Shown one piece after another: positions 44,158 to 63,183 of a stretch of 64,000 bases of DNA. The stretch comes from a virus (Duplodnaviria; Caudoviricetes). Each line of letters opens with the position of its first letter. Positions within the stretch are counted from its first letter, which is position 1. The notes beneath the pieces are model-generated. The model ran no database searches and had not been told where the DNA came from. It saw only the letters and a program-made list of their open reading frames with translations. The position numbers were made by a program, and so were the translations under genes. The stretch lies in IMG/VR virus record IMGVR_UViG_3300023170_004399, positions 32,001 through 96,000 of that record. One strand, 5' to 3'.

Positions 44158-46086
44158 ATGTTTACTAGTAACATGTTTCAACAAGACAAGTTAATTGAAA
44201 GGGATATTGATTTAGTTTTTGTTGCTGATTTATTTGTTGAGGATTATATAGGTGGAGCTGAGTTAACTACGCAAGCCTTAATAGATAGTGCTGAAACTCA
44301 TGGGATAAAAGTGCAAAAAATACATTCTCATGAGGTTACATTAAAAACTCTAGAATCCGGCTCGAACAAATTTTGGGTTTTTGGCAATTTTTCTAATTTC
44401 AACCAACAATTAATCCCTACAGTCGTTGGTAATATTAATTATTCTTTGTTAGAATATGATTATAAATTTTGTAAATATAGATCAGTAGAAAAGCATGCTG
44501 ACGCAGAAGGTGTAGATTGCAATTGTAGTAATGAACAACAAGGCAAATTGATATCTGCTTTTTTTCATGGTGCAAGAACTGTTTTTTATATGAGTGAAAA
44601 ACAAAAAGATTTGTATTTCCAAAAATTCCCATTTTTTGAAAAAGACGAAGGAGCTAAACATTTAGTACTATCTTCAGTGTTTGATGACAATTTTTTTGCA
44701 ACAGTTAAAAAATTAAATGAAAAACACAAAGGGAAGAAAAGAAGTGGGTGGCTTGTATTAGGTTCATCTAGTTGGATAAAAGGTACTGATGATGCTATTA
44801 AGTGGTGCAATGATAATAATAAAGATTTTAAGGTTTTACAAGGTTTGCCAGTTGACGTTGTATTAGAAGAAATGGCGACTGCGGAAGGTATTGTTTACTT
44901 ACCAAAAGGTAATGATACTTGCCCTAGAATTATTATTGAAGCACAAATGTTAGGCTGTGAGCTTGTAATGAATGATAAGGTTCAACATGCTACTGAATTT
45001 CCTTTTAAAGATGGAAGCTATGAAGATTTAGAAGTATATCTTTACACTAGAAGAGAGTTTTTCTGGGAAACAATAAAGGGTGACATGAATTGGCAACCAA
45101 AAATCTCTGGATACACTACAACATACAATTGTATCGAAGGTGGCTATCCATTTGAGGAATGTATAAAGTCTCTAGTAGGTTTTTGCACAGAAATAGTTGT
45201 AATGGATGGTGGATCAAATGATGGAACATTTGAAAAATTAGTTGAAATGCAATCTATAGAACCTAAAATTAGGATATTCCAACATAAAGTAGACTATAAT
45301 CATCCTAGATTTGCTGTGCAAGATGGTTTGCAAAAAGCGAGAGCTAGAGAAAAATGCACTCAAGCTTTTTGTTGGCAAATAGATAGTGATGAGATTGTGC
45401 ATGAAGATCATCATGTTTCTATATTCAAACTTTGTCGACAATTTCCAAAAATGATTGATTTAATAGCACTTCCAGTTATAGAATACTGGGGGTCAGATGA
45501 AAAAGTAAGAATAGATGTTAATCCTTGGAAATGGAGGCTTTCTAGAAATAAGCCAAACATTACACACGGTATACCAGCCGAGCTGCGCAGATTTGATGAT
45601 AATGGTGACCTATATTCTGCACCTGGCACTGATGGTTGTGATTATATCGATAAAGAAACTTACCAAAGAATTCCACATGCATCATTTTATACAGAGCAAG
45701 TGCATCAAGTAAGAATGGCAGCTTTAGGTGGCAATAAAGATTTACAAGAAAATTATGAAAAGTGGTTTAATCAGTTAGTTAAAAACATGCCGGGTGTATT
45801 TCATTACTCGTGGTTTGATTTAGAAAGAAAAATAAAAACATATAAAACTTATTGGTCAAAACATTGGCAAAGTATGTATAATATAACGCAAGAAGACACA
45901 GTTGAAAATAACATGTTTTTTGATAAAAAGTGGGAAGATGTTACTGATCAAGATATTAAAGAAATGGCAGCTAAATTAAAAGATGAAATGGGCGGATGGG
46001 TTTTTCATCAAAAAATAGATTTTAATCGTAAAACTCCGCACTTACATGTAGAATTAAAACAACCTAAATGGATGATAGATGGATAA
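44158..46086 (+). CDS. Two-domain glycosyltransferase (GT-B/GT4-like N-terminus plus GT2-like C-terminus)
   Basis: DTCPRIIIEAQMLGC; SGYTTTYN..VVMDGGSNDGT..QIDSDE. Confidence 0.75.
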   Translation: MFTSNMFQQDKLIERDIDLVFVADLFVEDYIGGAELTTQALIDSAETHGIKVQKIHSHEVTLKTLESGSNKFWVFGNFSNFNQQLIPTVVGNINYSLLEYDYKFCKYRSVEKHADAEGVDCNCSNEQQGKLISAFFHGARTVFYMSEKQKDLYFQKFPFFEKDEGAKHLVLSSVFDDNFFATVKKLNEKHKGKKRSGWLVLGSSSWIKGTDDAIKWCNDNNKDFKVLQGLPVDVVLEEMATAEGIVYLPKGNDTCPRIIIEAQMLGCELVMNDKVQHATEFPFKDGSYEDLEVYLYTRREFFWETIKGDMNWQPKISGYTTTYNCIEGGYPFEECIKSLVGFCTEIVVMDGGSNDGTFEKLVEMQSIEPKIRIFQHKVDYNHPRFAVQDGLQKARAREKCTQAFCWQIDSDEIVHEDHHVSIFKLCRQFPKMIDLIALPVIEYWGSDEKVRIDVNPWKWRLSRNKPNITHGIPAELRRFDDNGDLYSAPGTDGCDYIDKETYQRIPHASFYTEQVHQVRMAALGGNKDLQENYEKWFNQLVKNMPGVFHYSWFDLERKIKTYKTYWSKHWQSMYNITQEDTVENNMFFDKKWEDVTDQDIKEMAAKLKDEMGGWVFHQKIDFNRKTPHLHVELKQPKWMIDG

Positions 46087-46828
46087 CGTAAAAATATGTG
46101 TTGCTATTTGTAATTACAATCATTTGAAATATTTGGCTGATTCTATAAAATCAATACAAAATCAAACACATAAAAACTTAGATATATGTGTAATTGATGA
46201 CTGTTCTGAAAATCAAAAAGAAGTTAAGTTACTAGTAGAATCTTTTATGATGTCAGATGAACGTATTAGATTAATATTACACAGCGAGAATAAAGGTAAG
46301 TGGCACTGTTTAAATGAAGCATATAGGACGACTGATGCACAAGTGTGTACTTCTAATGATGCGGATGATGTTTCACTTAAAGAAAGATTAGAAGTACAAC
46401 TAAAATGCATGATAGCCACAAAGACTATACACAACTTATGTACGCATTTAGATTTTTTTGATGATGATGAGTTAAAAATGTATAATGAAAATTATGAATT
46501 TAAGCATGAAAAAATAGAAGTTATACAACCTGAAGTTGTAAAAAATCTAGTTTTACAAGGTTATCAGATAAAATATAAAATGGGGTTAGGTTTAAATCAC
46601 TATTTTGTTGGTAAATATCAAACGACCGGTGCTTCTGCTATGTTTGATAGAGAAATATGGTTGCAAGGCATTAGATTTAACCCACCAGAGCAGGATCTAA
46701 GAGTATTGGTAAGCGAAGATTCTGATTTTAATTTTAGATGCACAGCACTTCTGGGAAAGACTTCTGTCGTAAATTTACCCCTTTATTTATATCGCAGAAA
46801 CACTAGCACTAACGAGGAAAAAATATAA
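46079..46828 (+). CDS. GT2 family glycosyltransferase
   Basis: ICNYNH..SIQNQT..VIDDCS..NDADD, SEDSDF and LYLYRR. Confidence 0.85.
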   Translation: MDNVKICVAICNYNHLKYLADSIKSIQNQTHKNLDICVIDDCSENQKEVKLLVESFMMSDERIRLILHSENKGKWHCLNEAYRTTDAQVCTSNDADDVSLKERLEVQLKCMIATKTIHNLCTHLDFFDDDELKMYNENYEFKHEKIEVIQPEVVKNLVLQGYQIKYKMGLGLNHYFVGKYQTTGASAMFDREIWLQGIRFNPPEQDLRVLVSEDSDFNFRCTALLGKTSVVNLPLYLYRRNTSTNEEKI

Positions 46829-47580
46829 TGAGCGTTAAGATGAAAATAGTTGTTCCTACTTATAATACGGAACATTGGATACAAAGGTGCATTCGTAGTA
46901 TTGCTGCACAGTCTTATAAGAATTTTGAATGTGTGATAATAAACGACTGTTCAACTGATAATACAGGGCACATGATTGATCAGTGTAAAGAAATACAAGG
47001 TGATCCAAGATTTAAAATTGTTCACAATAAAGAAAATGTTAAGGCATTAAAAAATATTGTTGACGGTTTCAACATGTTAAATGCAAAGGAAGAACCTGAA
47101 TCTGTGCTAATGGCTATTGATGGTGATGATTTTTTATACAGTTCAGAGTCTCTTACAGTAGTTGCCCAGTATTATGCGCAACTAAAACCTCTTTTGACTT
47201 ATGGAAATTGGGTTGGGTGGCCGCATGGTACTCATTCTAATAATCGACCTATACCGGATCATGTGCACAATAGGAGAAATTACAGAGATTTGCCTTTTGC
47301 TTTTTCACATTTGCGCACTTTTAAAAGTAAGCTTTGGTACAACATTAAAGATGAAGATTTAAGAGGTCAAGATGGCAAGTATTTTGAATCTGGTTGGGAC
47401 GTTGCTTTTATGTTACCAATGATAGAAATGGCAGGCAAAAGAACTGTTATGATCCCAAATGTTCTATATTGTTATAACATGGTTAATCCTATAAGTGATT
47501 GTAAAATTAGGGGACAACAGCAGATTAGCATTGATAACTATATAAGGACAAAAAAACAGTACAATTTGTTAGGGGGTTAA
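46828..47580 (+). CDS. GT2 family glycosyltransferase
   Basis: VVPTYN..SIAAQSY..INDCSTD..IDGDDFL. Confidence 0.85.
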   Translation: MSVKMKIVVPTYNTEHWIQRCIRSIAAQSYKNFECVIINDCSTDNTGHMIDQCKEIQGDPRFKIVHNKENVKALKNIVDGFNMLNAKEEPESVLMAIDGDDFLYSSESLTVVAQYYAQLKPLLTYGNWVGWPHGTHSNNRPIPDHVHNRRNYRDLPFAFSHLRTFKSKLWYNIKDEDLRGQDGKYFESGWDVAFMLPMIEMAGKRTVMIPNVLYCYNMVNPISDCKIRGQQQISIDNYIRTKKQYNLLGG

Positions 47581-47581
47581 G

Positions 47582-48664
47582 ATGAATAACGCATACACAG
47601 AGTGGAATAATATTACTAGTCAATTATTTGATTCTTATATTTTAAAATATGAACTTCAAGAAATTATATATACTAACAACTATGTTTTATATGATGCTGA
47701 TAATATTAAAATTGACAGTATTAATAATAAATTTGCAAACGTTGCTGATATATGTGTAATTGTACCTTTTTTTGGTCGTTTCCAACATGTTGTCAACACA
47801 TGTCAATCAATAATAGATGCTGCTGCAAAAACTAAATTAAATATTGAGCTAGTACTAATAGAAAAAGCTGATACCCAAGAAGATTTAAAAGCACATAATT
47901 TTTTTGCTTATTCAAGATTTAACATGATGCCAAAAAATTTACAATTTTTCTGTATACAAAAAGTGCATGCAAACTATAAATCAAAAGGTTTGTTAATGAA
48001 TTTGGGCGCACTACTTCGGCCGAATGCAAAATATTATTTAGTACACGATAGTGATATCATTGTTCAGTCTAGTTTTTTTAACAAAATACAAAAAAATATT
48101 GAACGTAGAGGTGAAGTAAATTTTATGCAACCTTATAGTAATAATAGAATATTGTTGACTACTCCGATGTTAGCGGAAATGTACTTTACAAATATTATAA
48201 GTAATGATGATTTAAATGAAAAAATGCCTGGTGTTTTTGTAAATAAAAACTGGTATCAAAAACAATATTCTTATGGTGGTTCCGTGCTAATTTCAAATAA
48301 AGCATATTACGGTGTTGGTGGGTTTGATGATCAAATTTTCTGGACTTGGGGTGCTGAAGATATAATGTTTTGGACAAAACTAATAGATAAATATGGCCAA
48401 CCAATATATGCTGATTATGACATAAACATGTTTCACATTTATCATCCACCATCAATTAATGAACAAACTTCACAGGGTGATTTTTTAAATAAAATGTTTA
48501 CTTTGTCAGAAAAAATGTGGAACATGTATCAAAATATTGATCTTAACTCTAGGCTAAATTATATTAATAAAAAATCAAAATTTTTATCTAAATATAAAAA
48601 CTTAGACATTGACATAAAAGATGCTATTTTTAAATTTAAAAAAATTAGCAGCAGGAGATTATAG
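47582..48664 (+). CDS. GT7-like (galactosyltransferase-type) glycosyltransferase
   Basis: KGLLMNLG, VHDSDI and GGFDDQIFWTWGAED. Confidence 0.7.
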   Translation: MNNAYTEWNNITSQLFDSYILKYELQEIIYTNNYVLYDADNIKIDSINNKFANVADICVIVPFFGRFQHVVNTCQSIIDAAAKTKLNIELVLIEKADTQEDLKAHNFFAYSRFNMMPKNLQFFCIQKVHANYKSKGLLMNLGALLRPNAKYYLVHDSDIIVQSSFFNKIQKNIERRGEVNFMQPYSNNRILLTTPMLAEMYFTNIISNDDLNEKMPGVFVNKNWYQKQYSYGGSVLISNKAYYGVGGFDDQIFWTWGAEDIMFWTKLIDKYGQPIYADYDINMFHIYHPPSINEQTSQGDFLNKMFTLSEKMWNMYQNIDLNSRLNYINKKSKFLSKYKNLDIDIKDAIFKFKKISSRRL

Positions 48665-48667: not shown

Positions 48668-50245
48668 ATGAAAAATAATAAAAACATACTAGGGTTTTAT
48701 GGCTCACATGATGCATCAGTAACCTATCTAGACAAAAAAGGAAAAATAAGAATTCTAGAGTTTGAGAGATTTTCTAAAAAAAGATACGCAATGTATTCAG
48801 ATAGGTTTGACCACAGGACAATTGGTACGAATAATGAAACAAGATCAGCTTTTTTAAACTACGTGTCCCAAGATATAAAGACTACTGATGATTTAGTTAT
48901 TGCTTATAATGAGCTTTCTGAAACTGATATTGCTTTTATAAAAAAACATTTTGAAAAAGCAAAATTTATACAATGCAACCATCATCAAGCGCATGCTTAC
49001 TGTGCATATTACCAGTCCCCTTATAAAACAGCACATGTTATATCTTTGGATGGAGGAGGTCTAGATAATGGTGCAGTTTCAATGTCAAAAGTTTTTTATG
49101 CTGACAAAGATAAAGTAGAAGAAATTTTTGACCCAAAGATAGATTTAGGTAATCCATATGCAAAGTTAGGTTACGTAATATCTGAAATAAATCATGGTTA
49201 TGACGGTCAAAAAATGTCACTTGCATATGCTGGTAAAATAATGGGTTTATGTGCATATGGTAATGCAAGAATGGAATGGCTTAAACCAATGCAAAAGTAC
49301 TATAAGCACAAATCTTTGGATAAACTCGCAAAAGATATCGGCTTAATTTTGGGTCAAAATAGCTTAAGTGGACAAGTTGGTTTTGATTTAGCAGCGACCA
49401 GTCAACACGTTTTTGAAGATATAGCTTTTAATTTAGTTAAAAACGTTTTTGATAAGAAAAATGATAATATTATTTTAACCGGTGGTTGTGCACTCAATGT
49501 TTTATTTAATCAAAAATTAAAGCTTTTTTTAAAAAATACTGATTACGATCTTTTCGTGCCACCTAATCCAAACGACTGTGGGCTTTCTTTTGGTCAGTAT
49601 TGCATGTTTAACAATGTAAAGCATAATGACATATTATATAATGGTTTCCCCGTATTAGATTTACAAAAATTAGACGCTGTTGTCAAGAATTACAATGCAA
49701 AAAAAATAAAAACTAGTGACATTGTAGACTTGTTATCGCAGGGAAAAATAATTGGTTTAGTTTATGGTGATTCTGAAGTAGGACCTCGTGCGCTAGGAAA
49801 TAGAAGCATTATTTGTGATCCTAGTTTTAAAAACATGAAAGATGTTTTAAATCTTAAGGTTAAATTTAGAGAGTGGTTCCGTCCATTTGCCCCAGTTTCT
49901 CTTTTAGAAGACGCACCAGTTTTTTTTGATGATGCTTTTGAATCACCGTATATGAGTTATGCCCCAAAAGTAAAGGAAGAATATCAAAATATTTTAAAAG
50001 CTATTACACATGTAGATGGAACGTCAAGACTGCAAACAGTTACAAAAGGGCAACACAAGCTTTTTTATGACATTTTAGTTTGCATGAAAAAAAATAAAAA
50101 AACACCAGTACTGTTAAATACTTCATTTAATATTAAAGGTTATCCTATACTGACAACAATTGAAGATGCGCTGTATGTTTTAAATAACACTGAGCTTGAC
50201 CATGTTATAATTCAAGGCTACTTGTTTTCGAAAAAAGGTTTATGA
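48668..50245 (+). CDS. O-carbamoyltransferase (NodU/CmcH/TobZ family)
   Basis: HDAS, EFERF, HHQAHA, DGGG, AGKIMGL, GGCALN, EVGPRALGNRS, REWFRPFAP and LLNTSFN. Confidence 0.92.
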   Translation: MKNNKNILGFYGSHDASVTYLDKKGKIRILEFERFSKKRYAMYSDRFDHRTIGTNNETRSAFLNYVSQDIKTTDDLVIAYNELSETDIAFIKKHFEKAKFIQCNHHQAHAYCAYYQSPYKTAHVISLDGGGLDNGAVSMSKVFYADKDKVEEIFDPKIDLGNPYAKLGYVISEINHGYDGQKMSLAYAGKIMGLCAYGNARMEWLKPMQKYYKHKSLDKLAKDIGLILGQNSLSGQVGFDLAATSQHVFEDIAFNLVKNVFDKKNDNIILTGGCALNVLFNQKLKLFLKNTDYDLFVPPNPNDCGLSFGQYCMFNNVKHNDILYNGFPVLDLQKLDAVVKNYNAKKIKTSDIVDLLSQGKIIGLVYGDSEVGPRALGNRSIICDPSFKNMKDVLNLKVKFREWFRPFAPVSLLEDAPVFFDDAFESPYMSYAPKVKEEYQNILKAITHVDGTSRLQTVTKGQHKLFYDILVCMKKNKKTPVLLNTSFNIKGYPILTTIEDALYVLNNTELDHVIIQGYLFSKKGL

Positions 50246-51084
50246 TGAAATATGTTATAACAGCAAAAGGATTATTAGATGTCAATACTGGCAATGGTTC
50301 GTTTTCCGGCGGAACACCAGTTTCTCAAACAGAGTGCGCGACAGAACTTATAATTACAAGATTAGAAGCTATTAATTTATTTAAACAAGGCTTGATAAAC
50401 AGTGACACATGTGTTGTAACATTACCGGAAAGAAGATTTTTATATGAGAATATTTTTACTAAAACAGAGGTGTATAACCCAAGTAAAGTTTATAAAGATT
50501 GCATTGATTTAGTTTCAAATGAAAGTATAGAGAGATTGTGTAAAAAATTGCCTTATAAACCTTTTTACAAATATTTTGACCGTGACAAAAAAGAGATATT
50601 AGATATACCACTTAACAAATCAATACTAAATATGGAGTGTGATCAATTTCTTATTTGTATTCCTAGACTAAAAAACTCAGACACTAGAAGAAATTTAGAA
50701 CAGAATTATTGGGAAAATTTTATAAAAAAAGCTAGTAAAATATATAGTAAAGTATGTGTTTTTGGGAAAGGCAATCAAAATTTAGATAATGGTAAAAATA
50801 TTGTTTATATTGATACACTAAAAGATTATTGTAGTTATTTGCACCACCCAAATTGTGCGCATGTTGTTAGTACAATATCAGGACCATGTCATTATGCGCA
50901 ATCATTTTCAAATACGGGTGGAAAAACTTTGTTAACAATGATTGATAATTATAATTTAATAGAAAAGCATGGAGATGATCCTTCTTACTTTCACCCATGT
51001 ATCAACTTTACAAATATTAAAATTAACTTTATTAAAAAAGTGCCAACAGTTGATGAGCTATTGGAAACACTGGAGGAAAAATGA
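50242..51084 (+). CDS. Hypothetical protein, possibly GT9-like glycosyltransferase
   Basis: RRNLEQNYWENFI and VVSTISGPCHYA resemble GT9 motifs; adjacent to a DUF4254-like gene. Confidence 0.4.
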   Translation: MMKYVITAKGLLDVNTGNGSFSGGTPVSQTECATELIITRLEAINLFKQGLINSDTCVVTLPERRFLYENIFTKTEVYNPSKVYKDCIDLVSNESIERLCKKLPYKPFYKYFDRDKKEILDIPLNKSILNMECDQFLICIPRLKNSDTRRNLEQNYWENFIKKASKIYSKVCVFGKGNQNLDNGKNIVYIDTLKDYCSYLHHPNCAHVVSTISGPCHYAQSFSNTGGKTLLTMIDNYNLIEKHGDDPSYFHPCINFTNIKINFIKKVPTVDELLETLEEK

Positions 51085-51431
51085 TAGGTAAAAAATTAGA
51101 CAAATATATTGAGGAAAAAGTTGCTGAAGTGCTTAATAAAACAAAATTTCCGGAATATGATAATATACATAGTGATTCTTTTTCTGAATTGATAGATAAA
51201 CTAATAATTGTGCACACCAGGCTTTGGTATCTTGAAGATGCTTTAAATGTTGAAACTGACCCACATAAAATTGCTGAGTTAAAAAGAAAAGCAGATGTTA
51301 CATTTAAAGAAAAAAGACCTATGTTGGTCAAAGCAATCGATAAAACAATCACAAATATGTGCAATGGAAAATATAATCCAACAGTTGAAAATATAAAAGC
51401 TTATAAAGGTTATAAAAAAGAAAATGAATAA
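51081..51431 (+). CDS. DUF4254-like helical protein
   Basis: LWYLED..KIAELKRKAD..R..LVKAID. Confidence 0.45.
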   Translation: MIGKKLDKYIEEKVAEVLNKTKFPEYDNIHSDSFSELIDKLIIVHTRLWYLEDALNVETDPHKIAELKRKADVTFKEKRPMLVKAIDKTITNMCNGKYNPTVENIKAYKGYKKENE

Positions 51432-52383
51432 AGATGATAAAATTTTAGTTGCTGGTCATAGAGGATTTGTAGGAAGTAATTTAGCTAAGCACTTAAAAAA
51501 TCTAGGTTATACAAATATTAGTGGTTACACTAGAAAACAAGTAGATCTATCTAACGTACATGAAACTAACTCTCTTTTTAAATCACAAAATTTTGATTAT
51601 GTTTTTATGTGCGCAGCAAAATGTGGCGGATTACAAGCAAATTTAGATGACCCATATAGTTTTTTGTACGATAATTTAGTCGTACAAAATAATTTAATAC
51701 ATGCATCAATAGAAAACCATGTTAAAAAAGTACTGTTTTTAGGTTCAAGTTGCATTTATCCAACAAATTATAAGCAACCACTAAAAGAAGAATACATATT
51801 ACAGGGTCCAGTTGAACCAACAAATGAAGGCTACTCAATTGCTAAAATAGCAGGGCTTAAACTTTGTGAATATGCTAACAGCCTGCTAGGACAAACTCAT
51901 GGCGGCATAAAACATACGACCAAGTTTATTTCACTAATGCCTTGTAATTTATATGGGCCAGGCGACGATTTTGATCTTAGAAATTCACACGTAATGGCAG
52001 CATTAATCAGGAAATTTGTTGAAGCAAAAAAAACAAATGCAAATCACGTAAAAATATGGGGAACTGGTAAAGCCAGGCGTGAATTTTTATACATTGATGA
52101 TTTGTCAAGTTGTATGGTGTGGGCTATGACAAATATTGAAAAGACTAAAACATTTTTAAATGTAGGTACTGGCTGTGACATAAGCATAATAGAATTAGCA
52201 AAAATGATAGCAGAAATAGTAGATTTTAATGGTGACATAGTTTTGCAAAAAGAAAAACCAGAAGGCATGATGAGAAAGTGTTTGGATGTTGAAAAAATAC
52301 AAAAACTTGGTTGGCGACATCAGGTTCTACTGCAAGATGGTGTCAACAAAACAGTAAAATATTATATTGATAATTATTCGTGA
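51424..52383 (+). CDS. fcl: GDP-L-fucose synthase family reductase (Fcl/WcaG; could be ColC)
   Basis: AGHRGFVGS, AAKCGGLQAN, FLGSSCIYP, EPTNEGYSIAK, PCNLYGP and GTGKARREFLY. Confidence 0.9.
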   Translation: MNKDDKILVAGHRGFVGSNLAKHLKNLGYTNISGYTRKQVDLSNVHETNSLFKSQNFDYVFMCAAKCGGLQANLDDPYSFLYDNLVVQNNLIHASIENHVKKVLFLGSSCIYPTNYKQPLKEEYILQGPVEPTNEGYSIAKIAGLKLCEYANSLLGQTHGGIKHTTKFISLMPCNLYGPGDDFDLRNSHVMAALIRKFVEAKKTNANHVKIWGTGKARREFLYIDDLSSCMVWAMTNIEKTKTFLNVGTGCDISIIELAKMIAEIVDFNGDIVLQKEKPEGMMRKCLDVEKIQKLGWRHQVLLQDGVNKTVKYYIDNYS

Positions 52384-54110: not shown

Positions 54111-54689
54111 ATGCACATAGATTTTGAAAATATCGAAAATAAATTAGCGTCAAGTATCGACAGCGATGAATATAAAAATTTAGTTGATAAAATTAAAAAA
54201 GTTGATAGAATTTACTTGCTAGGAAATGGTGGTTTGCATTTTGTCGCAGGACACATGTCAACAGATTTAACCAGGTTAATTAAAAACAAAGTAGCTTATT
54301 CATTTGATTCGGTTGGCTTTGTTACTAGTAATGCTAATGATCATGGTTTTGAAAATCTATTTGTTAGATGGTTAGAAACAACGTCTTCTGTTGATTCACC
54401 CGAGAAATGTTTAGTAATAGGCATGTCATGTTCAGGAAACTCTACTAATGTTGTTAATGCACTAGACTGGGCTGAAAAAAATAATTATAAGACTTTTCTA
54501 ATAAGCGGCCAAAAATCACAAAATTTAAGTGCCGGTATCGATGAACTTACTTTTAATTGTAAATATTTTCACACTGTTGAGGTTTTGTGTATGATGTTGT
54601 TTTATGATGTTGTTCATGCTGTCGGCAGTTTGTGTCCATCGATAAATGAAGAAAAGAAAAGATTAGTTAACTCATCTTTGCGAGGTTAA
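54111..54689 (+). CDS. SIS-domain sugar-phosphate isomerase, GmhA-like but divergent
   Basis: LLGNGG..AGHMSTDL, ANDHGFENLF and GMSCSGNSTNVV. Confidence 0.75.
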   Translation: MHIDFENIENKLASSIDSDEYKNLVDKIKKVDRIYLLGNGGLHFVAGHMSTDLTRLIKNKVAYSFDSVGFVTSNANDHGFENLFVRWLETTSSVDSPEKCLVIGMSCSGNSTNVVNALDWAEKNNYKTFLISGQKSQNLSAGIDELTFNCKYFHTVEVLCMMLFYDVVHAVGSLCPSINEEKKRLVNSSLRG

Positions 54690-54690: not shown

Positions 54691-55077
54691 ATGATACCAA
54701 GATTGCATTCATTTGATGATGAAACTAAACAAATAGGTATAGATTTTGACGGCGTTATTCATGCAAACTCTAAAGGTTTTTTTGATGGCACCGTTTATGA
54801 TGTACCTGTTCCAGGTTCTATAGAAGCAATTAAAAAAATATCTAAAAAATATGACATTGTAGTTTTTAGCGCAAAAGCGAGAACAGATAGAATGTTAATA
54901 AATGGTAAGACTGGTGTAGAACTCATTAAGGATTGGTTGCAAAAACACGGCATATTAAAATATGTAAAAGAAGTAACAGCAGAAAAGCCTCGTGCTGTTG
55001 CTTACATTGATGACAAAGCGATAAGATTTACCACATGGGAAAATGTGTTTGACAATATGGATGATTTAGGAATATGA
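54691..55077 (+). CDS. Small HAD-superfamily phosphatase
   Basis: GIDFDGVI and YIDDKA. Confidence 0.75.
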   Translation: MIPRLHSFDDETKQIGIDFDGVIHANSKGFFDGTVYDVPVPGSIEAIKKISKKYDIVVFSAKARTDRMLINGKTGVELIKDWLQKHGILKYVKEVTAEKPRAVAYIDDKAIRFTTWENVFDNMDDLGI

Positions 55078-56264
55078 AAATAGTTGCAATAGTACCAGCG
55101 CTATCTGGTGGGCAAAGGTTACCAAATAAAAACCTTTTATTGGTCGATGGTGAACCAATGATAAGTTATGTACTTTCCGCTTTAACAAAAACAACTGCCA
55201 TAAACGATGTGTTTGTAAGTACTGATATTCCGGAAATTAAAAACTTCGTAAATTTAAATTTTAAAGAAGTAAAGTGCGTTGATAGATTATCAAACTATGG
55301 TGGGACTAGCTGCAAGATGAAAAATGCATCTGCAGATTGCAATGGAAAAAGATGTCAGGTACACGATCACTACCTCTATGATTTTATTAATAATGTTGAT
55401 GCTGACATATTAATACAAGTGCATACCACATCACCACTTTTAAAAGCTTCAACCATTAATTCTTTTGTACAAAAAATGTTAGATGAAGATTTAGATTCTT
55501 GCTTTGCAGTTAACAACCACCAAAAAGAGTGTTTGCTTTCTTCCGCACCTATCAATTTTTCTTTAAAAAAGAAGACTCCAACACAAGATTTAAAAGTTGT
55601 TTCAGAGATAGCTTGGGCAATTTCCGGATGGAAAATTACATCATTTAGAGACGCTTATGAAAAAAATCAAAGTCCATCGTTTGTTGGCAAAATTGGTTGG
55701 CACCCAATAAACAAGCTGGAAGCTATAGACGTTGACGACTGGGAAGATTTATACATTGCTGAAGCTTGTTTATCACATGCAAAACGTATTGAAAATGTCG
55801 GACAAAAAAAATTAACAATCGAAACAACTAGCATAGAACGAGAATTAAAAGATTTAATTGAGAAAGATGGTTGTACACAATCTGAAAAAGTAACATATAA
55901 TCAAATTCTAAACAATATATATATTGCTAAAAATGAAATGGGCACCGGGTCATGGTGTTACCCAGTCATTATCACGGACAATGATCAAGCGTGTTTTATC
56001 CAACAAGTACCGGGTGAAGGCTGTAGATGGCACAATCACCCAACTAAAGATGAGTTCTGGATTGTTATGGATGGTAAATTTGCATTTGAAATAGACGGGT
56101 TTGAACCGGTTATTGCAAAAAAAGGCGATGTTGTTTATGCAAAAAAAGGAATAAATCACAGAATTACATGTGTTGGCGATAAACCAGGTATAAGATTAGC
56201 TTGTGGAGAGAGAAATTTTGCTCACATATATGAAAACAATGAGCCACCTAAGAGATTTAAATGA
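55074..56264 (+). CDS. Acylneuraminate/Kdo-type cytidylyltransferase fused to a C-terminal cupin
   Basis: IVPALSGGQRLPNKNLL, VSTD, TSPLL and IDVDDWEDL; cupin HNHPTKDEFWIV..INHRI. Confidence 0.8.
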   Translation: MKIVAIVPALSGGQRLPNKNLLLVDGEPMISYVLSALTKTTAINDVFVSTDIPEIKNFVNLNFKEVKCVDRLSNYGGTSCKMKNASADCNGKRCQVHDHYLYDFINNVDADILIQVHTTSPLLKASTINSFVQKMLDEDLDSCFAVNNHQKECLLSSAPINFSLKKKTPTQDLKVVSEIAWAISGWKITSFRDAYEKNQSPSFVGKIGWHPINKLEAIDVDDWEDLYIAEACLSHAKRIENVGQKKLTIETTSIERELKDLIEKDGCTQSEKVTYNQILNNIYIAKNEMGTGSWCYPVIITDNDQACFIQQVPGEGCRWHNHPTKDEFWIVMDGKFAFEIDGFEPVIAKKGDVVYAKKGINHRITCVGDKPGIRLACGERNFAHIYENNEPPKRFK

Positions 56265-56926
56265 ATTTAATAATGCTTGGACATACTGGCTCAATTGGTC
56301 ATTACATTTTTAATAAATATAAAAATCAAGGTTTCAATATCACTGGTTACTCGAGTAAAGATTTTAATGCGGAATCTGATAGTGACGTAAAAAATATTGC
56401 CGAAAAAATACGTAATACTAAAAAAATCGACGGTTTTATAAATTGTATGGGTGTTGTCGATTTACCTGAGTATAAAAATGTGGTTTCTTTTAACAAACTT
56501 TTAAACATTAATTTAAAAGCTGCATTTGCTTTAAGCGTAGCCGCAGCTGAAAATATGAAAAGCCACAAAAGTGGTTCAATCATAAACATTGGTTCAATTG
56601 CATCAAATAATGTGAGAATTGGCCGGGTAGGTTATACTGCTACAAAAGCTGGTCTTGAGGGACTAACTAGAGCTTTGGCAATAGAATATGCACAATATAA
56701 TATTAAAATAAATTGTGTTGCCCCTGGACCTACTGAAACTGATTTGTTAAGAAATACCTTAAGTAAAAAAGATTTTAAAAATTTAATAACACTAATGCCA
56801 ATGCAAAATTTAGTACAACCTAATGATATTTACACTACAGTTGATTTTATTCTAACAAAAAATAACTGTATAACTGGCCAAACAATTGTGGTTGATGGTG
56901 GATTAAGTATCAAATCTAATTTTTAA
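56261..56926 (+). CDS. Short-chain dehydrogenase/reductase
   Basis: GHTGSIG, IINIGS, YTATK (YxxxK), NCVAPG and VDGG. Confidence 0.85.
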   Translation: MNLIMLGHTGSIGHYIFNKYKNQGFNITGYSSKDFNAESDSDVKNIAEKIRNTKKIDGFINCMGVVDLPEYKNVVSFNKLLNINLKAAFALSVAAAENMKSHKSGSIINIGSIASNNVRIGRVGYTATKAGLEGLTRALAIEYAQYNIKINCVAPGPTETDLLRNTLSKKDFKNLITLMPMQNLVQPNDIYTTVDFILTKNNCITGQTIVVDGGLSIKSNF

Positions 56927-56937: not shown

Positions 56938-57726
56938 ATGATATCAGTTAACTTAATGGGTCGTTTTGGAAATCAGCTTTTTCAAATTGCCACTGCAGAA
57001 TCATTGGCTATTGATAATGGTGCATCGACAGTCTATTTTAACACTGTTGCTGGTACAACCCCTAAGCTGCATGAAACAATGTTATATATGAATACTTATT
57101 ACAACAAAATAAATTTTTTACCACATAACCTAATAAAATCTTTTAAATTTAATGTGTGCAGTGAGAAAGAATTCGCATTTAATCCAATTCGATACAGCCC
57201 AAATATGCTGCTAAATGGATATTTCCAATCAGAAAAATATTTTTTTCACAATGGTCATTTGATTAAAAAATTATTAAGCATGCCCGACAAGCAAATTAAA
57301 GTTATAAAACAGTTGCACCCGGATTTATTTGCGACAAACTTAAATGATTATGCTTGTGTACATGTACGCCGCGGCGATTATGTAAATTTGTCTAATGTAC
57401 ATACGAATCTAGCAGAGGATACTAATTATTACATTGATGCAATGCGTGAATTCGAGAATAAAAAATTTATTTTTTTCTCCGATGATATTTCTTGGTGTGC
57501 TAATTATTTTGGTAAAGAGCATACGTATTTTACTAGTGCATGTGACATATATGATTTTTACATAATGGGTTTGTTTAATAATGTTATAATGAGTAATTCA
57601 ACCTATTCATGGTGGTCTACTTGGTTGTATGAAAAAGATGACAAAAAAATAATAGCACCAAAAAAATGGTTCTCTAATAATATAAATTCAAATGATTTAA
57701 TACCTAACAGGTGGAGTTTAGTATGA
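56938..57726 (+). CDS. GT11 family alpha-1,2-fucosyl/colitosyltransferase
   Basis: GRFGNQLFQ, GYFQSEKYF, HVRRGDY, FSDD and SNSTYSWW. Confidence 0.9.
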   Translation: MISVNLMGRFGNQLFQIATAESLAIDNGASTVYFNTVAGTTPKLHETMLYMNTYYNKINFLPHNLIKSFKFNVCSEKEFAFNPIRYSPNMLLNGYFQSEKYFFHNGHLIKKLLSMPDKQIKVIKQLHPDLFATNLNDYACVHVRRGDYVNLSNVHTNLAEDTNYYIDAMREFENKKFIFFSDDISWCANYFGKEHTYFTSACDIYDFYIMGLFNNVIMSNSTYSWWSTWLYEKDDKKIIAPKKWFSNNINSNDLIPNRWSLV

Positions 57727-58874
57727 TAAAATTAGTACAAGATACTATTGACTACAGTGACATAGAATACTTAATTAGTTGGTTGAAAACAAACCCAAGA
57801 TTAACTAAAGGGCCAATAACTCAACAGTTTGAGAAAGAATGGGCATCTTTTCAGGGTGTTGGTTACACTACTTATGTTAACTCCGGTTCTTCTGCAATAC
57901 TTTTAATGTTATATGCACTAATAGTTGCAAAAAAAATAAAGCCCGGTGACAAAATAATTGTGCCGGCAATTTCTTGGGCAACAGATTTAGCACCAGTTAT
58001 ACAGTTAGGCCTTGTACCAATATTATGTGATTGCAATCTAGATGACTTATCAGTTGACCTAGATGCTTTGGAAAAACTATGTGCTGATGAAAAACCAAGT
58101 GCTTTGATATTAGTTTCAGTTTTAGGCCTAGTTCCTAAAATGGATAGTATTGTAGATATATGTCAAAAGTATAACGTTGTATTACTTGAAGATGTTTGTG
58201 AATCTTTGTATTCTCAGCACAAGGGGAAACAGCTTGGTAATTTTGGTTTAATGTCTTGTTTTTCATTATATTTTGGTCATCACATTTCTACGATTGAAGG
58301 TGGTATAATTTCTACAAACTGTGATGAAATGAATTGCATTTTAAAATCAATAAGAAATCATGGTTGGGACAGAGATCTAAACACAAACAAACAAAAAGCA
58401 TTACGAAAAGAACATAACGTATCTGACTTTGATGCTTTATATACTTTCTACTACCCGGGTTTCAATGTGCGTGCCACAGATTTGCAAGCATATTTAGGAC
58501 TAAAACAGCTAGGAAAAATAAAACCTTATTCAGAAAAGCGTGAGGAAAATTACAAGCATTACCAAAAATCCTTACCGGATTCTTTTTGGAAACCAGTCTA
58601 TAGAAAAAATACGTTTATATCTAGTTTTTGTTATCCTATCATACATGAAAAAAGGGACAAAATAGTTGCTAACTTATTAAAAAACAATGTCGAGTGTAGA
58701 CCGCTTATTTGTGGCACAATGGGTAGACAGCCAATGTATGTTTCAAGGTATGGTGTAAAAAAATTAAAAAATGCTGATTATGTTTCTAAATATGGTTTTT
58801 ATATACCTAATCATCAAAATTTAACTTTTAAAAATATTGATAATATAGTTAATATTATAACAGAAACAATTTAA
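57723..58874 (+). CDS. DegT/DnrJ family PLP enzyme of ColD type (GDP-4-keto-6-deoxymannose 3-dehydratase)
   Basis: VNSGSSA, VPAISW, LLEDVCES, RNHGW and CRPL. SLYFGHHISTIEGG has His at the Schiff-base Lys position, as in ColD (SFYSHHIATMEGG). Confidence 0.8.
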   Translation: MIKLVQDTIDYSDIEYLISWLKTNPRLTKGPITQQFEKEWASFQGVGYTTYVNSGSSAILLMLYALIVAKKIKPGDKIIVPAISWATDLAPVIQLGLVPILCDCNLDDLSVDLDALEKLCADEKPSALILVSVLGLVPKMDSIVDICQKYNVVLLEDVCESLYSQHKGKQLGNFGLMSCFSLYFGHHISTIEGGIISTNCDEMNCILKSIRNHGWDRDLNTNKQKALRKEHNVSDFDALYTFYYPGFNVRATDLQAYLGLKQLGKIKPYSEKREENYKHYQKSLPDSFWKPVYRKNTFISSFCYPIIHEKRDKIVANLLKNNVECRPLICGTMGRQPMYVSRYGVKKLKNADYVSKYGFYIPNHQNLTFKNIDNIVNIITETI

Positions 58875-58887: not shown

Positions 58888-59865
58888 ATGAAGAAAACAG
58901 CGTTAGTAACCGGTGTCACTGGTCAAGATGGCTCTTATTTAGTAGAATTTTTACTCGAAAAGGGTTATAGAGTTATTGGTATTAAAAGAAGGACTAGTCT
59001 TATAGCAACGGGGAGAATAGACCACTTATTATCAAATGACAATTTTATTTTAAAATATGGTTCAATGCATGACTCCGGATGGATGTACGAAGTTATTTCA
59101 AAATATAAACCGCAAGAAATATATAATTTAGCAGCACAAAGTCATGTACGCGTAAGTTTTGATTGTTCTATTGAAACTGTTGATATTGTTGCGACAGGGA
59201 CTTTGCGTTTATTAGAAGCTTGTCGATTATTATGCCCGGAAGTAAAATTTTATCAAGCTTCATCTTCTGAAATGTTTGGTGACAACCCTGTCAACCCACA
59301 GAGTGAAACTACAAAGCTGCAGCCAGCATCACCATATGCATGCGCTAAAGTTTTTTCACACAATCTTATGCATAATTATCGGCAAAGTTATAATATGTTT
59401 TGCTGCTCAGGCATACTTTTTAATCATGAATCTCCCAGAAGAGGGGAAACTTTTGTTACTAGAAAAATTACAAGAGCTGCAGCTAGAATTAAACTAGGTT
59501 TGCAAGATAAATTATATTTAGGCAATCTAGAAGCCAAACGTGACTGGGGGCATTCAAAAGATTATGTTGAAGCAATGTGGTTGATGTTACAACAGAAAGT
59601 GCCTGATGATTTTGTCATAGCGACGGGAAAGACTTACTCTGTAGCAGAGTTTTTAAAGACAGTTTTTGATTATGCTGGATTAAGTATTGAAAAACATGTT
59701 GAGTTTGATAAAAGGCTGCTAAGACCTCATGAGGTGCCTTTGTTGTTAGGGGATCCAAGTAAAGCTAAAAAAGTTTTAGGGTGGAAACCTAAATATGACA
59801 TGCATAGTTTAGCAAAAGAAATGTATGATTCTGATTACATATATTTTAAAAACTTTTTAACATAA
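58888..59865 (+). CDS. gmd: GDP-mannose 4,6-dehydratase
   Basis: TGVTGQDGSYL, YNLAAQSHV, QASSSE, SPYACAK, ILFNHESPRRGETFVTRKI and RDWGH. Confidence 0.97.
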   Translation: MKKTALVTGVTGQDGSYLVEFLLEKGYRVIGIKRRTSLIATGRIDHLLSNDNFILKYGSMHDSGWMYEVISKYKPQEIYNLAAQSHVRVSFDCSIETVDIVATGTLRLLEACRLLCPEVKFYQASSSEMFGDNPVNPQSETTKLQPASPYACAKVFSHNLMHNYRQSYNMFCCSGILFNHESPRRGETFVTRKITRAAARIKLGLQDKLYLGNLEAKRDWGHSKDYVEAMWLMLQQKVPDDFVIATGKTYSVAEFLKTVFDYAGLSIEKHVEFDKRLLRPHEVPLLLGDPSKAKKVLGWKPKYDMHSLAKEMYDSDYIYFKNFLT

Positions 59866-59919: not shown

Positions 59920-60771
59920 ATGATGTTACCAACTGGAAAAGCACACATATCGTTTAGTGAAATTAAGCTATGGGCAGAATGTTCTTATAGGCATAAGTTG
60001 ACATATGTTGATAAGTTAGATGCGTATCAAGATAACCAATATGCTGATTTTGGAACAATATGCCACAACCATATTGAGATATTTTTAAAATCAAAAAAAC
60101 CAATATCAGAAGATCAAGTAATTATTGATTTTAAAAACATGTGGAAAGAAAGAAGGTACGATAGTGATGAGTTTATTTTAGAAAAAAAGGAAAGCGATAA
60201 GAAATACAAACATGTTTATTTAGAAACCTGGGTTAAATATGCATTGCAAATATTAAGTGAATTCCCGGAGTGGATGAATAGCACGTTTCCCGATTATCAA
60301 GTTTTATCAGTCGAAGAATTGCTGATGGAAGACATAGAAGGTCATGATCAAAAATTTAAAGGCTTTATTGATTGTATAATAAAAGTGCCAAAGAAAAATG
60401 ATAAATATTTATATTACATTATTGATTGGAAAACGACAGGCCCTGGAGGCTGGTTTTATCTCAAAAAAAGGGATTTTAACAGTTTAGCACAAATTGGTAT
60501 GTATAAGCTGTTTTGGTCAAAAAAATATGAAGACATCAATGTCAAAGATATAAGAACCGCTTTTGTATTTCTAAAAAGAGGTGCAAAACCTGGGAAGTGT
60601 ATAGATATATTTACAGTGTCAACTGGGCCGAAGTTTTTAGAAAAATCTAGTAAACTAATTAACACAATGCTTTATAATGTTAAGAAAGGTGTTGCATTGC
60701 GAAATTATAGCAATTGCAAATTTTGTCCATTTAAAAATACGGAGCATTGCAGTGGTGGAGAATACACGTAA
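59920..60771 (+). CDS. PD-(D/E)xK Cas4/RecB-like exonuclease
   Basis: ISFSEI..ECSYR, FGTICH, FKGFIDCI, IIDWKT, Q..MY and C-terminal CKFCPF..C. Confidence 0.85.
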   Translation: MMLPTGKAHISFSEIKLWAECSYRHKLTYVDKLDAYQDNQYADFGTICHNHIEIFLKSKKPISEDQVIIDFKNMWKERRYDSDEFILEKKESDKKYKHVYLETWVKYALQILSEFPEWMNSTFPDYQVLSVEELLMEDIEGHDQKFKGFIDCIIKVPKKNDKYLYYIIDWKTTGPGGWFYLKKRDFNSLAQIGMYKLFWSKKYEDINVKDIRTAFVFLKRGAKPGKCIDIFTVSTGPKFLEKSSKLINTMLYNVKKGVALRNYSNCKFCPFKNTEHCSGGEYT

Positions 60772-62008
60772 AAAAAAGATAGTAGTTTTATCAGATCACG
60801 CGCTATCTACTAGTGGCGTAGGTACGCAGACTAGACACTTAATACATGGTTTGTTAGAAAAAGGCACGTGGTCTTTTAGGCAGTTAGGTGCAGCTATGAA
60901 ACATGCATCATATGACGTTATTACAGTAAATGATGATTTTATTATTAAACCAGTTGATGGATTTGGCACTAAAGAACAAATACGATTAATATTAGCTACA
61001 GAGAAACCTGACGGTATTTTAATATTTACTGACCCAAGATTTTTCGTTTGGTTTTTCGAAATAGAAGATGAAGTAAGACAAGTTTGTCCAATATTTTATT
61101 GGCACGTATGGGATAATGCACCATATCCGGCTTTTAATAATCCTTATTATGATTCATGTGATCTGATTAATTGTCATAGTTACCACACCTTCGAACAAGT
61201 TTCCGAAAAATACCCAGAAAAGACTAATTTTGTGCCGCACGCTTTGCCAAACGATATTTTTTATGAAATACCAGAAGAAGAAAAAAATGCAATGAAAAAG
61301 CAGTTTTTTGGCGACTCCGGGGAAGATTTGTTTATTGGTTTCTGGATGAATAGAAATGCAAAAAGAAAGAGGCCAGGCGACTTATTGCTAGCATGGTCTA
61401 TGTTTATAAAAACGTTAGAGAAAAATCACGGACACAAAAAAGCTAAACTAATAATGCACACTGATCCTAGAGATAATGAAGGGCCTAATTTAATTGCAAT
61501 AGTAGATATGTTAGGAATAAGAGATAATGTTTTATTTTCTAATCAGAGAGTTGGATTTAAAGAAATAAATATATTGCATAATATTGCTGATTTTACTATC
61601 AACATATCTTTTGCAGAAGGGTTTGGTCTTTCAACACTAGAAGCTATGCAAACGGGGACACCTATTATTGCTCCTAAGACTGGCGGTCAAACACGACAAG
61701 TAGTTGATCACCGTGATGGCAGCGAAAATGGTTTTGCTTTGCCTATTGAATTTAAAACTTTAGTTGGCTCACAAAATGTGCCTTACATTTATGAAGATTA
61801 CACTAGCATAGAAACTATTGCAGAAAAAATTACTGCTATGTATGAGTTAGGAAAAGAAGGTCGAAAAGCTTTAGGTGAAAAAGCAAAAAAATATGTCGAA
61901 AGTGAGTTTAACTATCAAAAAACAATAGACTTGTGGCATGATACAATGAATGAAACAATAGAGAAGTTTCAAAAAAACACTAGAAGATTTACTTGGAGTA
62001 GTTTATAA
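60752..62008 (+). CDS. GT4 family glycosyltransferase
   Basis: SGVGTQTR, NRNAKRKR and AEGFGLSTLEAMQTGTPII; probable GTG start at 60752 or 60755 after GGAG. Confidence 0.85.
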   Translation: MVENTRKKKIVVLSDHALSTSGVGTQTRHLIHGLLEKGTWSFRQLGAAMKHASYDVITVNDDFIIKPVDGFGTKEQIRLILATEKPDGILIFTDPRFFVWFFEIEDEVRQVCPIFYWHVWDNAPYPAFNNPYYDSCDLINCHSYHTFEQVSEKYPEKTNFVPHALPNDIFYEIPEEEKNAMKKQFFGDSGEDLFIGFWMNRNAKRKRPGDLLLAWSMFIKTLEKNHGHKKAKLIMHTDPRDNEGPNLIAIVDMLGIRDNVLFSNQRVGFKEINILHNIADFTINISFAEGFGLSTLEAMQTGTPIIAPKTGGQTRQVVDHRDGSENGFALPIEFKTLVGSQNVPYIYEDYTSIETIAEKITAMYELGKEGRKALGEKAKKYVESEFNYQKTIDLWHDTMNETIEKFQKNTRRFTWSSL

Positions 62009-63183
62009 TGAAAACAATGCTTATAAGAGGTCCACTTTTAAGTCAAAGTGGTTATGGCGTACACTCAAGACAAATATTTAAATGGGCACTAGAAAACACT
62101 GATTATCAAATATTTGTGCAGGTGTTACCTTGGGGGATTACACCATGGTATACAAATAGTGATGCATGTGATGGGCTAATTGGTGAAATATTTAAACGGA
62201 CGGCACCAATTAATACTAAGTGTGATGTTTCAATGCAAATACAACTTCCTAATGAGTGGGATACTAGTTTAGCAAAAACAAATATTGGTGTCACTGCAGT
62301 TGTAGAAACTGACATATGTAGCAAAGAATGGGTAAACGCTTGCAACAATATGAGTGCTGTAGTTGTGCCTTCTAAATTTTGTAAACAGACTTTGCTAAAT
62401 TCAGGTCACAGTGGCAAAAATCTTTTTGTAATTAGCGAGTCTTTTATTGATGAATGCAATTTGCCTATTAGAGAAAGTTACCCTTTTAGGACCAGCGTAA
62501 ATTTTCTTCTGTTCGGCCAAATAACAGATATGAACGTTGAAACAGATAGAAAAAATACCTTCAATGCTATTAAATGGTTTTGTGAGACATTTGAAGAAAC
62601 TGTTGGTGATGATGTACATCCGGATGATGTTGGATTAGTTATCAAAACTAATTGTGGTACAAATAGTAAAATCGATTACAATTTAACAAAAAGGCAATTA
62701 GAAGCATATATAAAAAATGTGCGCAAAGGTAATTATCCAAAAATATATTTATTACATGGTCATATGACGAATGAAGAAGTTGTTGGTTTATACAAACACC
62801 CAAAACTTTTAGCTTTGTTAGCGCCAACTCGTGGTGAAGGATTTGGTTTGCCAATTTTAGAAGCAGCAGCATGTGATTTACCGGTAATAGCAACAAATTG
62901 GTCCGGACATTTAGACTTTTTAGGTGATGATCATTGGCTCAAAGTAGAAAAAAGAACGGTGATGGTGCCACCCGGGAAAATAGATGGTCGTATCTTTGTA
63001 GAAAATAGCAAATGGGCTGAGCCATTAGAGTTCAGTTACAAGCAAAAACTAAGATATGCAGCTATGAATATGGTAGAAGTTAAATCTGAAGCAAAAAAAC
63101 TAGGTAAAAAAGTAAGATCAAAGTTTAGTCACAAAGTCATTGTTAAAGATTACAATAAGTTATTTAGGCGTTTGAAATGTTAG
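62008..63183 (+). CDS. GT4 family glycosyltransferase
   Basis: SGYGVHSR, RKNT and RGEGFGLPILEAAACDLPVIATNWSGH. Confidence 0.85.
   Translation: MKTMLIRGPLLSQSGYGVHSRQIFKWALENTDYQIFVQVLPWGITPWYTNSDACDGLIGEIFKRTAPINTKCDVSMQIQLPNEWDTSLAKTNIGVTAVVETDICSKEWVNACNNMSAVVVPSKFCKQTLLNSGHSGKNLFVISESFIDECNLPIRESYPFRTSVNFLLFGQITDMNVETDRKNTFNAIKWFCETFEETVGDDVHPDDVGLVIKTNCGTNSKIDYNLTKRQLEAYIKNVRKGNYPKIYLLHGHMTNEEVVGLYKHPKLLALLAPTRGEGFGLPILEAAACDLPVIATNWSGHLDFLGDDHWLKVEKRTVMVPPGKIDGRIFVENSKWAEPLEFSYKQKLRYAAMNMVEVKSEAKKLGKKVRSKFSHKVIVKDYNKLFRRLKC

Follow-up and report, generated by a model that had tools for sequence, protein, structure and literature searches.

We examined a 64,000-nucleotide stretch of viral DNA, referred to as the window throughout (positions 32,001 to 96,000 of the IMG/VR record IMGVR_UViG_3300023170_004399; Duplodnaviria, Caudoviricetes), in which positions 44158-63183 form an island of glycan-building genes. 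This island probably encodes a lipid-carrier-independent protein glycosylation system that belongs to the phage itself and acts on the virion. It consists of 20 intact open reading frames (ORFs) on the + strand, co-oriented and mostly overlapping, abutting or a few bases apart, as expected from the original prediction, made from the sequence alone, of a ~19 kb glycan-building island. Ten of the 20 genes encode glycosyltransferases (GTs), with 11 domains in all: a GT-B/GT2 fusion, two GT2, a GT7-like, a GT9-like, a GT10, a Maf/MptE-like, a GT11 and two GT4 enzymes, the latter named GT4a and GT4b. This agrees with the earlier count of about ten, and the nucleotide-sugar enzymes and carbamoyltransferase listed with them are also present: Gmd, Fcl, a cytidylyltransferase-cupin, SIS, HAD and SDR proteins and a complete carbamoyltransferase. 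A PD-(D/E)XK nuclease, missing from that list, belongs to the block as well. The source is a large uncultured salt-marsh phage of ~270 kb, the longest contig with one of the island's identical proteins measuring 269,730 bases, and many independent assemblies carry identical proteins in unchanged gene order. Because a gp55-like sigma gene and the baseplate genes gp25 and gp6 lie downstream of the island, the phage was classed as T4-like.

Conserved core genes flank a variable sugar cassette

Homologues of GT4a were found in at least 548 viral contigs. GTDB contained only 30 contigs with a homologue, all from metagenome-assembled genomes (MAGs) and mostly in a phage context; three of these MAG contigs (L106, L108 and L111, binned as Halobacteriovorax SP2999 and Methylococcaceae TMED69) carry the locus together with sigma and baseplate-region genes and are probably mis-binned phage contigs. 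Over 85 distinct GT4a loci, GT4b followed GT4a in 83/84, the nuclease preceded GT4a in 54/65, and the sigma gene came after in 73/83. In the near clade the usual order was PhoH, fibre-like gene, fusion, cassette, nuclease, GT4a, GT4b, 99-aa protein, sigma and baseplate genes. The ends of the island are fixed, with the GT-B/GT2 fusion at the left and the nuclease, GT4a and GT4b at the right, and the cassette between them varies widely among relatives, being empty in seven loci (L050, L062, L068, L082, L083, L088 and L097). Clades farther away have the cassette downstream of GT4b and no adjoining fibre gene. The fibre neighbour that the original prediction had pointed to is thus adjacent in the near subclade only, and the 858-aa fibre-like protein itself gave no fibre match in Pfam or PHROGs. 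In the 288-kb relative (L139, 4936-9695), an inverted six-gene block containing GTs lies between the fibre gene and the fusion; its first gene has a late-type promoter motif upstream (see below), which may be chance given a 13% background.

The two ends of the island are linked to each other, as the GT2 domain of the fusion is joined to GT4b in L024 and L103 (with homologues in immuto and Mel-JY01), which ties both ends into one pathway. The cultured phages immuto, Mel-JY01 and RM378 all possess the GT4 pair and adjacent GT2s, and a GT4a profile found no match in T4, P-SSM2, HTVC008M or S-PM2. The hosts of the cultured carriers are Flavobacterium, Rhodothermus and (as recorded) Microcystis; since these represent different phyla, the core does not seem to depend on the surface chemistry of the host. 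We rejected the idea that an O-antigen locus was recently captured from a host, as both the GC content of the island (29-33%) and its GC at third codon positions are like those of the rest of the window and GT4a was not found in isolate genomes.

A Ser/Thr-Gly/Ala-Ser motif in virion proteins tracks the cassette

The motif [ST]GS was enriched 5.9x and 4.8x in two baseplate-region protein families and ~3-4x in the two fibre-like proteins of the window (10 occurrences vs 2.4 expected in the 858-aa protein), but only 0.2-1.1x in the gp6, gp25, gp5-like, GT4 and nuclease families. The enrichment was specific to the order of residues, most permutations giving 0.9-1.9x with the exception of SGT (2.5-3.1x), and it extended to [ST]AS. 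Genome-wide, [ST]GS reached 2.5-2.7x in three cultured carriers of the locus compared to 0.7-1.5x in four non-carriers. Furthermore, the density of [ST][GA]S in the two baseplate proteins was 9.3-22.3 per 1000 aa in all 34/34 cassette-bearing loci (~12.8 in this genome), compared to 0-8.2 per 1000 aa in the seven scorable empty-slot loci, which a GT4a tree, made in the quick version only, places on three or more separate branches. As the empty-slot loci retain the GT4 pair, the motif tracks the cassette better than it tracks the pair. The enrichment of the motif and its depletion at empty slots favour glycosylation of the virion over modification of the host surface. Virion proteins and host lipopolysaccharide (LPS) had both been proposed as targets; the evidence leans to the former, with the motif-bearing proteins as candidate acceptors.

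A predicted heterodimer of GT4a and GT4b

The two GT4 enzymes are distantly related paralogues, and each keeps the EX7E motif. The structure model of GT4a (predicted local distance difference test, pLDDT, 93.6) has a two-domain GT4 fold, for which the chlorovirus protein B736L is the best match in sequence (16% identity) and in fold (Z 36.9, root-mean-square deviation (rmsd) 2.9, 368 residues aligned), tied in fold with sucrose-phosphate synthase (Z 36.8) and followed by BshA (Z 35.6). Matches to GtfA (Z 23.0) and to T4 AGT (Z 22.8, rmsd 4.6, 333 aligned) were lower. Prediction of a GT4a-GT4b complex gave a score of 0.89, compared to 0.00 for the best of 3 controls; the mark used for this score is reached by 58/80 solved complexes and 2/110 mismatched pairs, counts that apply only roughly when our own alignments are used. 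Runs agreed in at least 96% of contacts, with a partner pLDDT of at least 92. In the model, the C-terminal residues 410-417 of GT4a contact residues 245-253 of GT4b, and this GT4a tail shows a beta-pattern with alternating basic and aromatic residues that is kept across homologues. A GT4a-GT4b heterodimer is thus supported at the level of the predicted model.

No export or initiation genes found in the island or related records

No multi-pass membrane proteins were predicted among the island genes (44158-63183). The Wzx flippase family PF01943 was found in 0/13 related records (control 13/14), the WbaP-type family PF02397 in 0/13 and the WecA-type family PF00953 in 0/14 (controls positive for both); most of these records are incomplete, and among them are one genome of 96% completeness and two to three cultured genomes that are complete. 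Likewise, 0/384 ORFs upstream of the locus in relatives had at least three transmembrane helices. Neither an exporter and polymerase (Wzx/Wzy or an ABC exporter) nor a WbaP/WecA initiator was found in the island or the related records, although a host enzyme could substitute for the initiating phosphoglycosyl transferase. These data accord with the earlier observation that no flippase, polymerase or initiating transferase is visible, and with its reading of the island as a cytoplasmic system for a complex decorated glycan rather than a complete O-antigen export pathway. The sole membrane protein at the locus is the 99-aa protein with a single transmembrane helix, which lies between GT4b and the sigma gene in about 80 loci.

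Donor sugars and mobile sub-modules

The DegT-family gene had ColD as its best match (E 4e-60) and keeps His188 of ColD where aminotransferases have Lys. An aminotransferase is ruled out by this His, and we re-assigned the gene as a ColD-type 3-dehydratase. Because it is ColD-like, Gmd, the ColD-like enzyme and the Fcl-type enzyme make up a GDP-colitose pathway set, and the island is predicted from these genes (Gmd, ColD-like, Fcl/ColC-type) to encode GDP-colitose/fucose synthesis. GT11 and GT10 are likely the transferases for colitose/fucose, and the phosphomannomutase at 25576-26388 probably supports the supply of GDP-mannose. At 32 kb from the island there is a solitary GT10-like gene (11322-12239), upstream of tRNA-Leu(TAA) by ~500 bases.

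The 279-aa GT9-like protein had no Pfam hit, but its confident model matched WaaF (Z 14.4, rmsd 4.2, 233 aligned); searching PDB sequences with the GT9-like and sigma alignments gave no match. The carbamoyltransferase, the GT9-like protein, the DUF4254 protein and the epimerase recur as a block among GT and sugar genes of other contigs. Relatives of the carbamoyltransferase were found by an alignment-based search, a single-protein search having given nothing. Of the 80 viral carbamoyltransferases closest to it, 49 lie near a gene homologous to one of the island's sugar genes and none has a thymidylate-synthase-like gene within 4 kb (four thymidylate synthase/gp42 queries); the island holds none either. 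This sugar-gene context is that of the GT-flanked carbamoyltransferases found on unmodified contigs by Yang et al. 2021 (PMC8670742). A second widespread viral module (L302-L324), with families assigned by eye, combines a ~420-aa GT-like protein, a carbamoyltransferase, a 295-aa protein and a ~790-aa methyltransferase-like fusion.

The SIS, HAD, cytidylyltransferase-cupin and SDR genes also recur together in other contigs, where this CMP-sugar module is accompanied by a dehydroquinate-synthase-like cyclase and by Maf- or GT29-like transferases; in P0100 the Maf-like protein is fused to the cytidylyltransferase-cupin. No PEP-dependent synthase was found in the island. The predicted product of the module is a CMP-activated acidic sugar or cyclitol. 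Larger modules in L243 (214-8859) and L244 (5255-13188) include the cyclase, Gfo/Idh and SDR proteins and Maf-/GT29-like transferases; they possibly constitute a pathway to a CMP-activated cyclitol acid, which occurs in an apparently cellular contig as well. In the large phage-like contig L242 (5141-9647), cytidylyltransferase-cupin, SIS, SDR and Gmd genes lie between nrdAB and recA/dnaB. Neither SIS nor cytidylyltransferase had a close match among cultured phages, leaving a link to RB69-type DNA arabinosylation unsupported. The window further contains a CTP_transf_like nucleotidyltransferase and a mannose-6-phosphate-isomerase-like cupin (28600-29491), and homologues of this pair lie within the glycan cassette of L030, L042, L058, L081, L095 and L107.

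Promoters and evidence against a virion acceptor

The motif ATAHTTA preceded gp25 in 50/74 relatives (5 expected) and, by inspection, the sheath, portal and head genes of the 288-kb relative, and was therefore taken as the late promoter. It preceded the nuclease in only 1/61 loci and GT4a in 3/86, and late-promoter control of the island was rejected on these counts. Sigma-70-like sites were present before the nuclease in 23/61 loci (5.5 expected) and before GT4a in 21/86 (7.4 expected); when the island itself was simply searched for sigma-70 sites, their number was that expected by chance (112 vs 108.7), and only the cross-genome comparison was informative. Expression of the island probably comes before the late phase, the sigma gene sharing a transcript with the GT4 pair ahead of it, and the adjacency of the sigma gene is therefore no evidence of late expression. 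The late-sigma neighbour of the original prediction was retained on a weak but consistent match (phrog_234 was matched by 15/23 homologues, best E 3e-7), whereas the argument drawn from its position was weakened.

The missing late-promoter signature is one of several observations that weigh against a virion glycosylation system. The closest near-complete relative, of 288 kb, reaches only 1.44x [ST]GS genome-wide, which is non-carrier-like. Cassette-bearing and empty-slot loci are not independent, all carriers forming one lineage. The empty-slot loci L062, L082 and L083 keep an intact GT4 pair while the motif is nearly gone, so that the pair may have another acceptor; the cassette could also lie elsewhere in these genomes, as the empty-slot contigs checked are only 7-17% complete. 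The motif could be a structural turn. With regard to the heterodimer, conservation at the interface is not above average (0.52 vs 0.59; 0.50 vs 0.55), the controls were unrelated proteins rather than other GT4s, and GT-B oligomers exist in the PDB; for these reasons we regard it as supported and not more. Finally, B736L, the closest solved fold, has no assigned function.

A proposed pathway and its alternatives

In the pathway that we propose, host-type promoters would drive transcription of the island ahead of the late phase, and one transcript would carry both the GT4 pair and the late sigma gene. Nucleotide sugars of the host, supplemented through the phage phosphomannomutase, would feed Gmd, ColD and Fcl/ColC to give GDP-colitose and possibly GDP-fucose, and the SIS-HAD-cytidylyltransferase-SDR module would supply a CMP-activated acidic sugar. 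The GT4a-GT4b heterodimer and the GT-B/GT2 fusion may then build in the cytoplasm a common inner glycan, with Ser/Thr in outer proteins of the virion as attachment points and hydrophobic-[S/T]-[G/A]-S as the probable site; GT2b, the GT7-like, GT9-like, GT10, GT11 and Maf-like enzymes and the carbamoyltransferase would extend and cap this glycan. The outcome would be a phage-specific surface 'serotype' for shielding, stability or adsorption. A fuller form of this proposal holds that a lineage of hundreds of aquatic jumbo phages possesses its own O-glycosylation, in which the GT4 heterodimer and the fusion prime Ser/Thr-Gly/Ala-Ser sites in proteins of the baseplate and fibre, while rare sugars (here colitose, a carbamoylated sugar and a CMP-sugar) come from a cassette that can be swapped, creating virion serotypes; we advance it tentatively and consider it less likely than not.

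Virion glycosylation has to be weighed against conversion of the host surface, in which the enzymes would extend lipid A-core or undecaprenyl-linked intermediates at the cytoplasmic face of the inner membrane, rely on a host flippase, and block superinfection or grazing. LPS core enzymes are soluble, so the missing export genes are no obstacle to this explanation, and several island genes are of kinds typical of LPS: the GT9-like fold, GmhA/GmhB-like SIS and HAD proteins, a KdsB/PseF-family cytidylyltransferase and the colitose enzymes. These two points keep it in consideration, and the host-type promoters, which fit early action, and the conserved single-transmembrane protein after GT4b point the same way. 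We nevertheless consider it unlikely, because phages whose hosts belong to different phyla retain the core, a set of ten transferases supplied with their own donors goes beyond the seroconversion cassettes that are known, and the correlation between virion motif and cassette is left unexplained; moreover, the flippases of hosts select their substrates (PMC7685785). Published work on such islands usually reads them in this way: the idea has been put forward for pelagimyophages (PMC7029224) and for cyanophages (PMC12801897), where the relevant portions of both papers offer it as a suggestion without chemical data. Still less probable is that the GT4 pair has a separate core job, glycosylating a small metabolite, a protein of the host or a few virion sites that are essential, and that the cassette is a loose accessory from a recombination hot-spot. 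Retention of the pair where cassette and motif are lost would suit such a division, as would the small-molecule GT4s among the top folds (sucrose-phosphate synthase and BshA) and the movement of sub-modules between unrelated phage lineages, but two observations suggest a single pathway: in L024/L103 GT4b forms one fused protein with the other anchor's GT2 domain, and in both near and far clades the cassette adjoins the pair, on one side or the other.

Hypermodification of DNA, with the GT4 pair or the cassette glycosylating or carbamoylating 5-hydroxymethylcytosine in the manner of T4 AGT/BGT and the MetaGPA carbamoyltransferase, is the least probable of these explanations and, in our judgement, very improbable. 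The conserved nuclease neighbour, the early/middle promoters, weak Pfam matches of GT4-conflict type (below or near the cut-off) and the one relative of the CMP-sugar module between nrdAB and recA are compatible with it. However, immuto_2-6A carries both GT4s and a cassette, and liquid chromatography-mass spectrometry of its DNA detected dA, dC, dT and fdPreQ1, with no glycosylated nucleoside reported (10.1101/2023.04.13.536721), making DNA an unlikely target. In addition, thymidylate-synthase content varies or was not found among carriers, GT4a fits B736L far better than T4 AGT, the 80 closest carbamoyltransferases lack a thymidylate-synthase-like gene within 4 kb, and Yang et al. 2021 found GT-flanked carbamoyltransferases on unmodified contigs. 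As the original prediction stated, the window holds no DNA hydroxymethylase; a TET/JBP search gave no match but, being run without a positive control, was uninformative.

Features of the locus and other genes of the window

The features of the locus are listed in Table 1. Elsewhere in the window, a three-gene block (30257-34979) is 72-83% conserved in the closest relative. A highly divergent GroEL-like protein of 407 aa is encoded at 36821-38044 (phrog_5725, E 3e-10; 18-30% in relatives). At 13362-14915, a lipoprotein-like protein of 517 aa combines HYDIN/ASH Ig-like domains with a weak VWA domain.

Table 1. Genes of the glycan island and its flanks, with window positions.
Feature	Position	Strand	Basis
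Phosphomannomutase, eukaryotic-type (HAD), outside island	25576..26388	+	PF03332 E 1e-33
Fibre-like protein, 858 aa, G/S/T-rich, left flank, candidate acceptor	41514..44090	+	Composition, repeats, position
Core GT-B (GT4-like) + GT2 fusion, 642 aa, left anchor	44158..46086	+	
GT2a; adjoins fusion in closest relatives too, 46-51%	46079..46828	+	
GT2b, semi-conserved	46828..47580	+	
GT7/chondroitin GalNAc-transferase-like GT-A enzyme, cassette	47582..48664	+	
NodU/TobZ-type O-carbamoyltransferase, glycan-context type	48668..50245	+	
GT9-like GT-B transferase, 279 aa; travels with carbamoyltransferase and DUF4254	50245..51084	+	Structure model
DUF4254 protein	51081..51431	+	
Fcl/ColC-type GDP-4-keto-6-deoxymannose epimerase-reductase	51424..52383	+	
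GT10, fucosyltransferase family	52391..53218	+	
Maf/MptE-like putative CMP-sugar transferase	53240..54052	+	
SIS isomerase, divergent GmhA-like	54111..54689	+	
HAD phosphatase (phrog_1238, weak GmhB-like)	54691..55077	+	
Cytidylyltransferase, CMP-ulosonate-synthetase-family, fused to cupin	55074..56264	+	
SDR oxidoreductase, part of CMP-sugar module	56261..56926	+	
GT11, alpha-1,2-fucosyl/colitosyltransferase family	56938..57726	+	
ColD-like GDP-4-keto-6-deoxymannose 3-dehydratase	57723..58874	+	His at position of ColD His188
Gmd (the 4,6-dehydratase of GDP-mannose)	58888..59865	+	
PD-(D/E)XK nuclease, conserved upstream neighbour of GT4a	59920..60771	+	
GT4a, lineage core GT4, EX7E kept; closest solved fold chlorovirus B736L	60755..62008	+	
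GT4b, lineage core GT4, predicted GT4a partner	62008..63183	+	
Conserved 99-aa protein, one N-terminal transmembrane helix, right flank	63177..63476	+	
Late sigma factor, gp55-like (240 aa in L001), with translational coupling to the GT4 pair before it	63457..64000	+	

Relation to known glycosylation systems

Sugar-gene islands in aquatic T4-like phages and virion glycosylation in mycobacteriophages and chloroviruses are already known; this analysis adds the heterodimer prediction, the classes of promoter, the contrast with empty slots, the assignment to colitose and the nucleoside argument from immuto. The island fits the glycan islands of large aquatic T4-like phages, being a cluster of soluble GTs and nucleotide-sugar enzymes that varies between relatives. 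Such clusters have been published for P-SSM2, S-SCSM1 and S-SCSM2R (PMC12801897), the last with 13 GTs, and as the host recognition cluster of pelagimyophages (PMC7029224); they likewise occupy a variable region near structural genes, and the parts of these papers that deal with them show no acceptor. P-SSM2 has homologues of Gmd (54%), Fcl (42%), GT11 (29%) and the carbamoyltransferase (32%). The locus described here differs in that its cassette is bracketed by a fixed core that P-SSM2-type phages lack, P-SSM2, HTVC008M and S-PM2 being without a GT4a match. Moraphages, as described in PMC12619734, are 200-307-kb aquatic T4-like phages, one of them from a salt marsh, with PhoH, heat-shock genes, variable islands and four core glycosyltransferase orthogroups to which that paper assigns no acceptor.

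In mycobacteriophages, phage-encoded GTs attach sugars, in the cytoplasm, to proteins of the capsid and the tail (Freeman et al. 2023, as summarized in PMC12619734 and PMC10877033). Mycobacteriophages belong to a different phage group from this T4-like phage. Their system reportedly uses fewer enzymes and no rare-sugar pathways. A literature search found no further papers on phage virion glycosylation. Chlorovirus capsid glycosylation (PMC9614988) likewise depends on soluble virus-encoded GTs and GDP-sugar enzymes, but concerns a eukaryotic virus and N-linked glycans. The best functional analogue in design appears to be the GtfA/GtfB system for O-glycosylation of serine-rich-repeat proteins (PMC6973325), a cytoplasmic, lipid-free arrangement with a two-protein GT-B priming complex and strain-variable extending GTs. 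However, GtfB is a non-catalytic chaperone whereas both phage GT4s keep EX7E, and the GT4a model is a two-domain GT4 that lacks the extra domain of GtfA, with no DUF1975 Pfam match. No accessory Sec system was seen with this locus. The locus thus belongs neither to the GtfA/GtfB family nor to the O-antigen loci.

For sugar-gene islands in large aquatic phages, the label has long been 'LPS' or auxiliary metabolic genes, and no acceptor was shown. In the present locus a fixed core can be told apart from a cassette that is swapped, and there is a candidate attachment motif that fades without the cassette; immuto, RM378 and Mel-JY01 are cultured carriers. If the system is directed at the virion, the GT4 heterodimer would be a new soluble, lipid-free tool for protein glycosylation, and these phages would have serotype-like coats.

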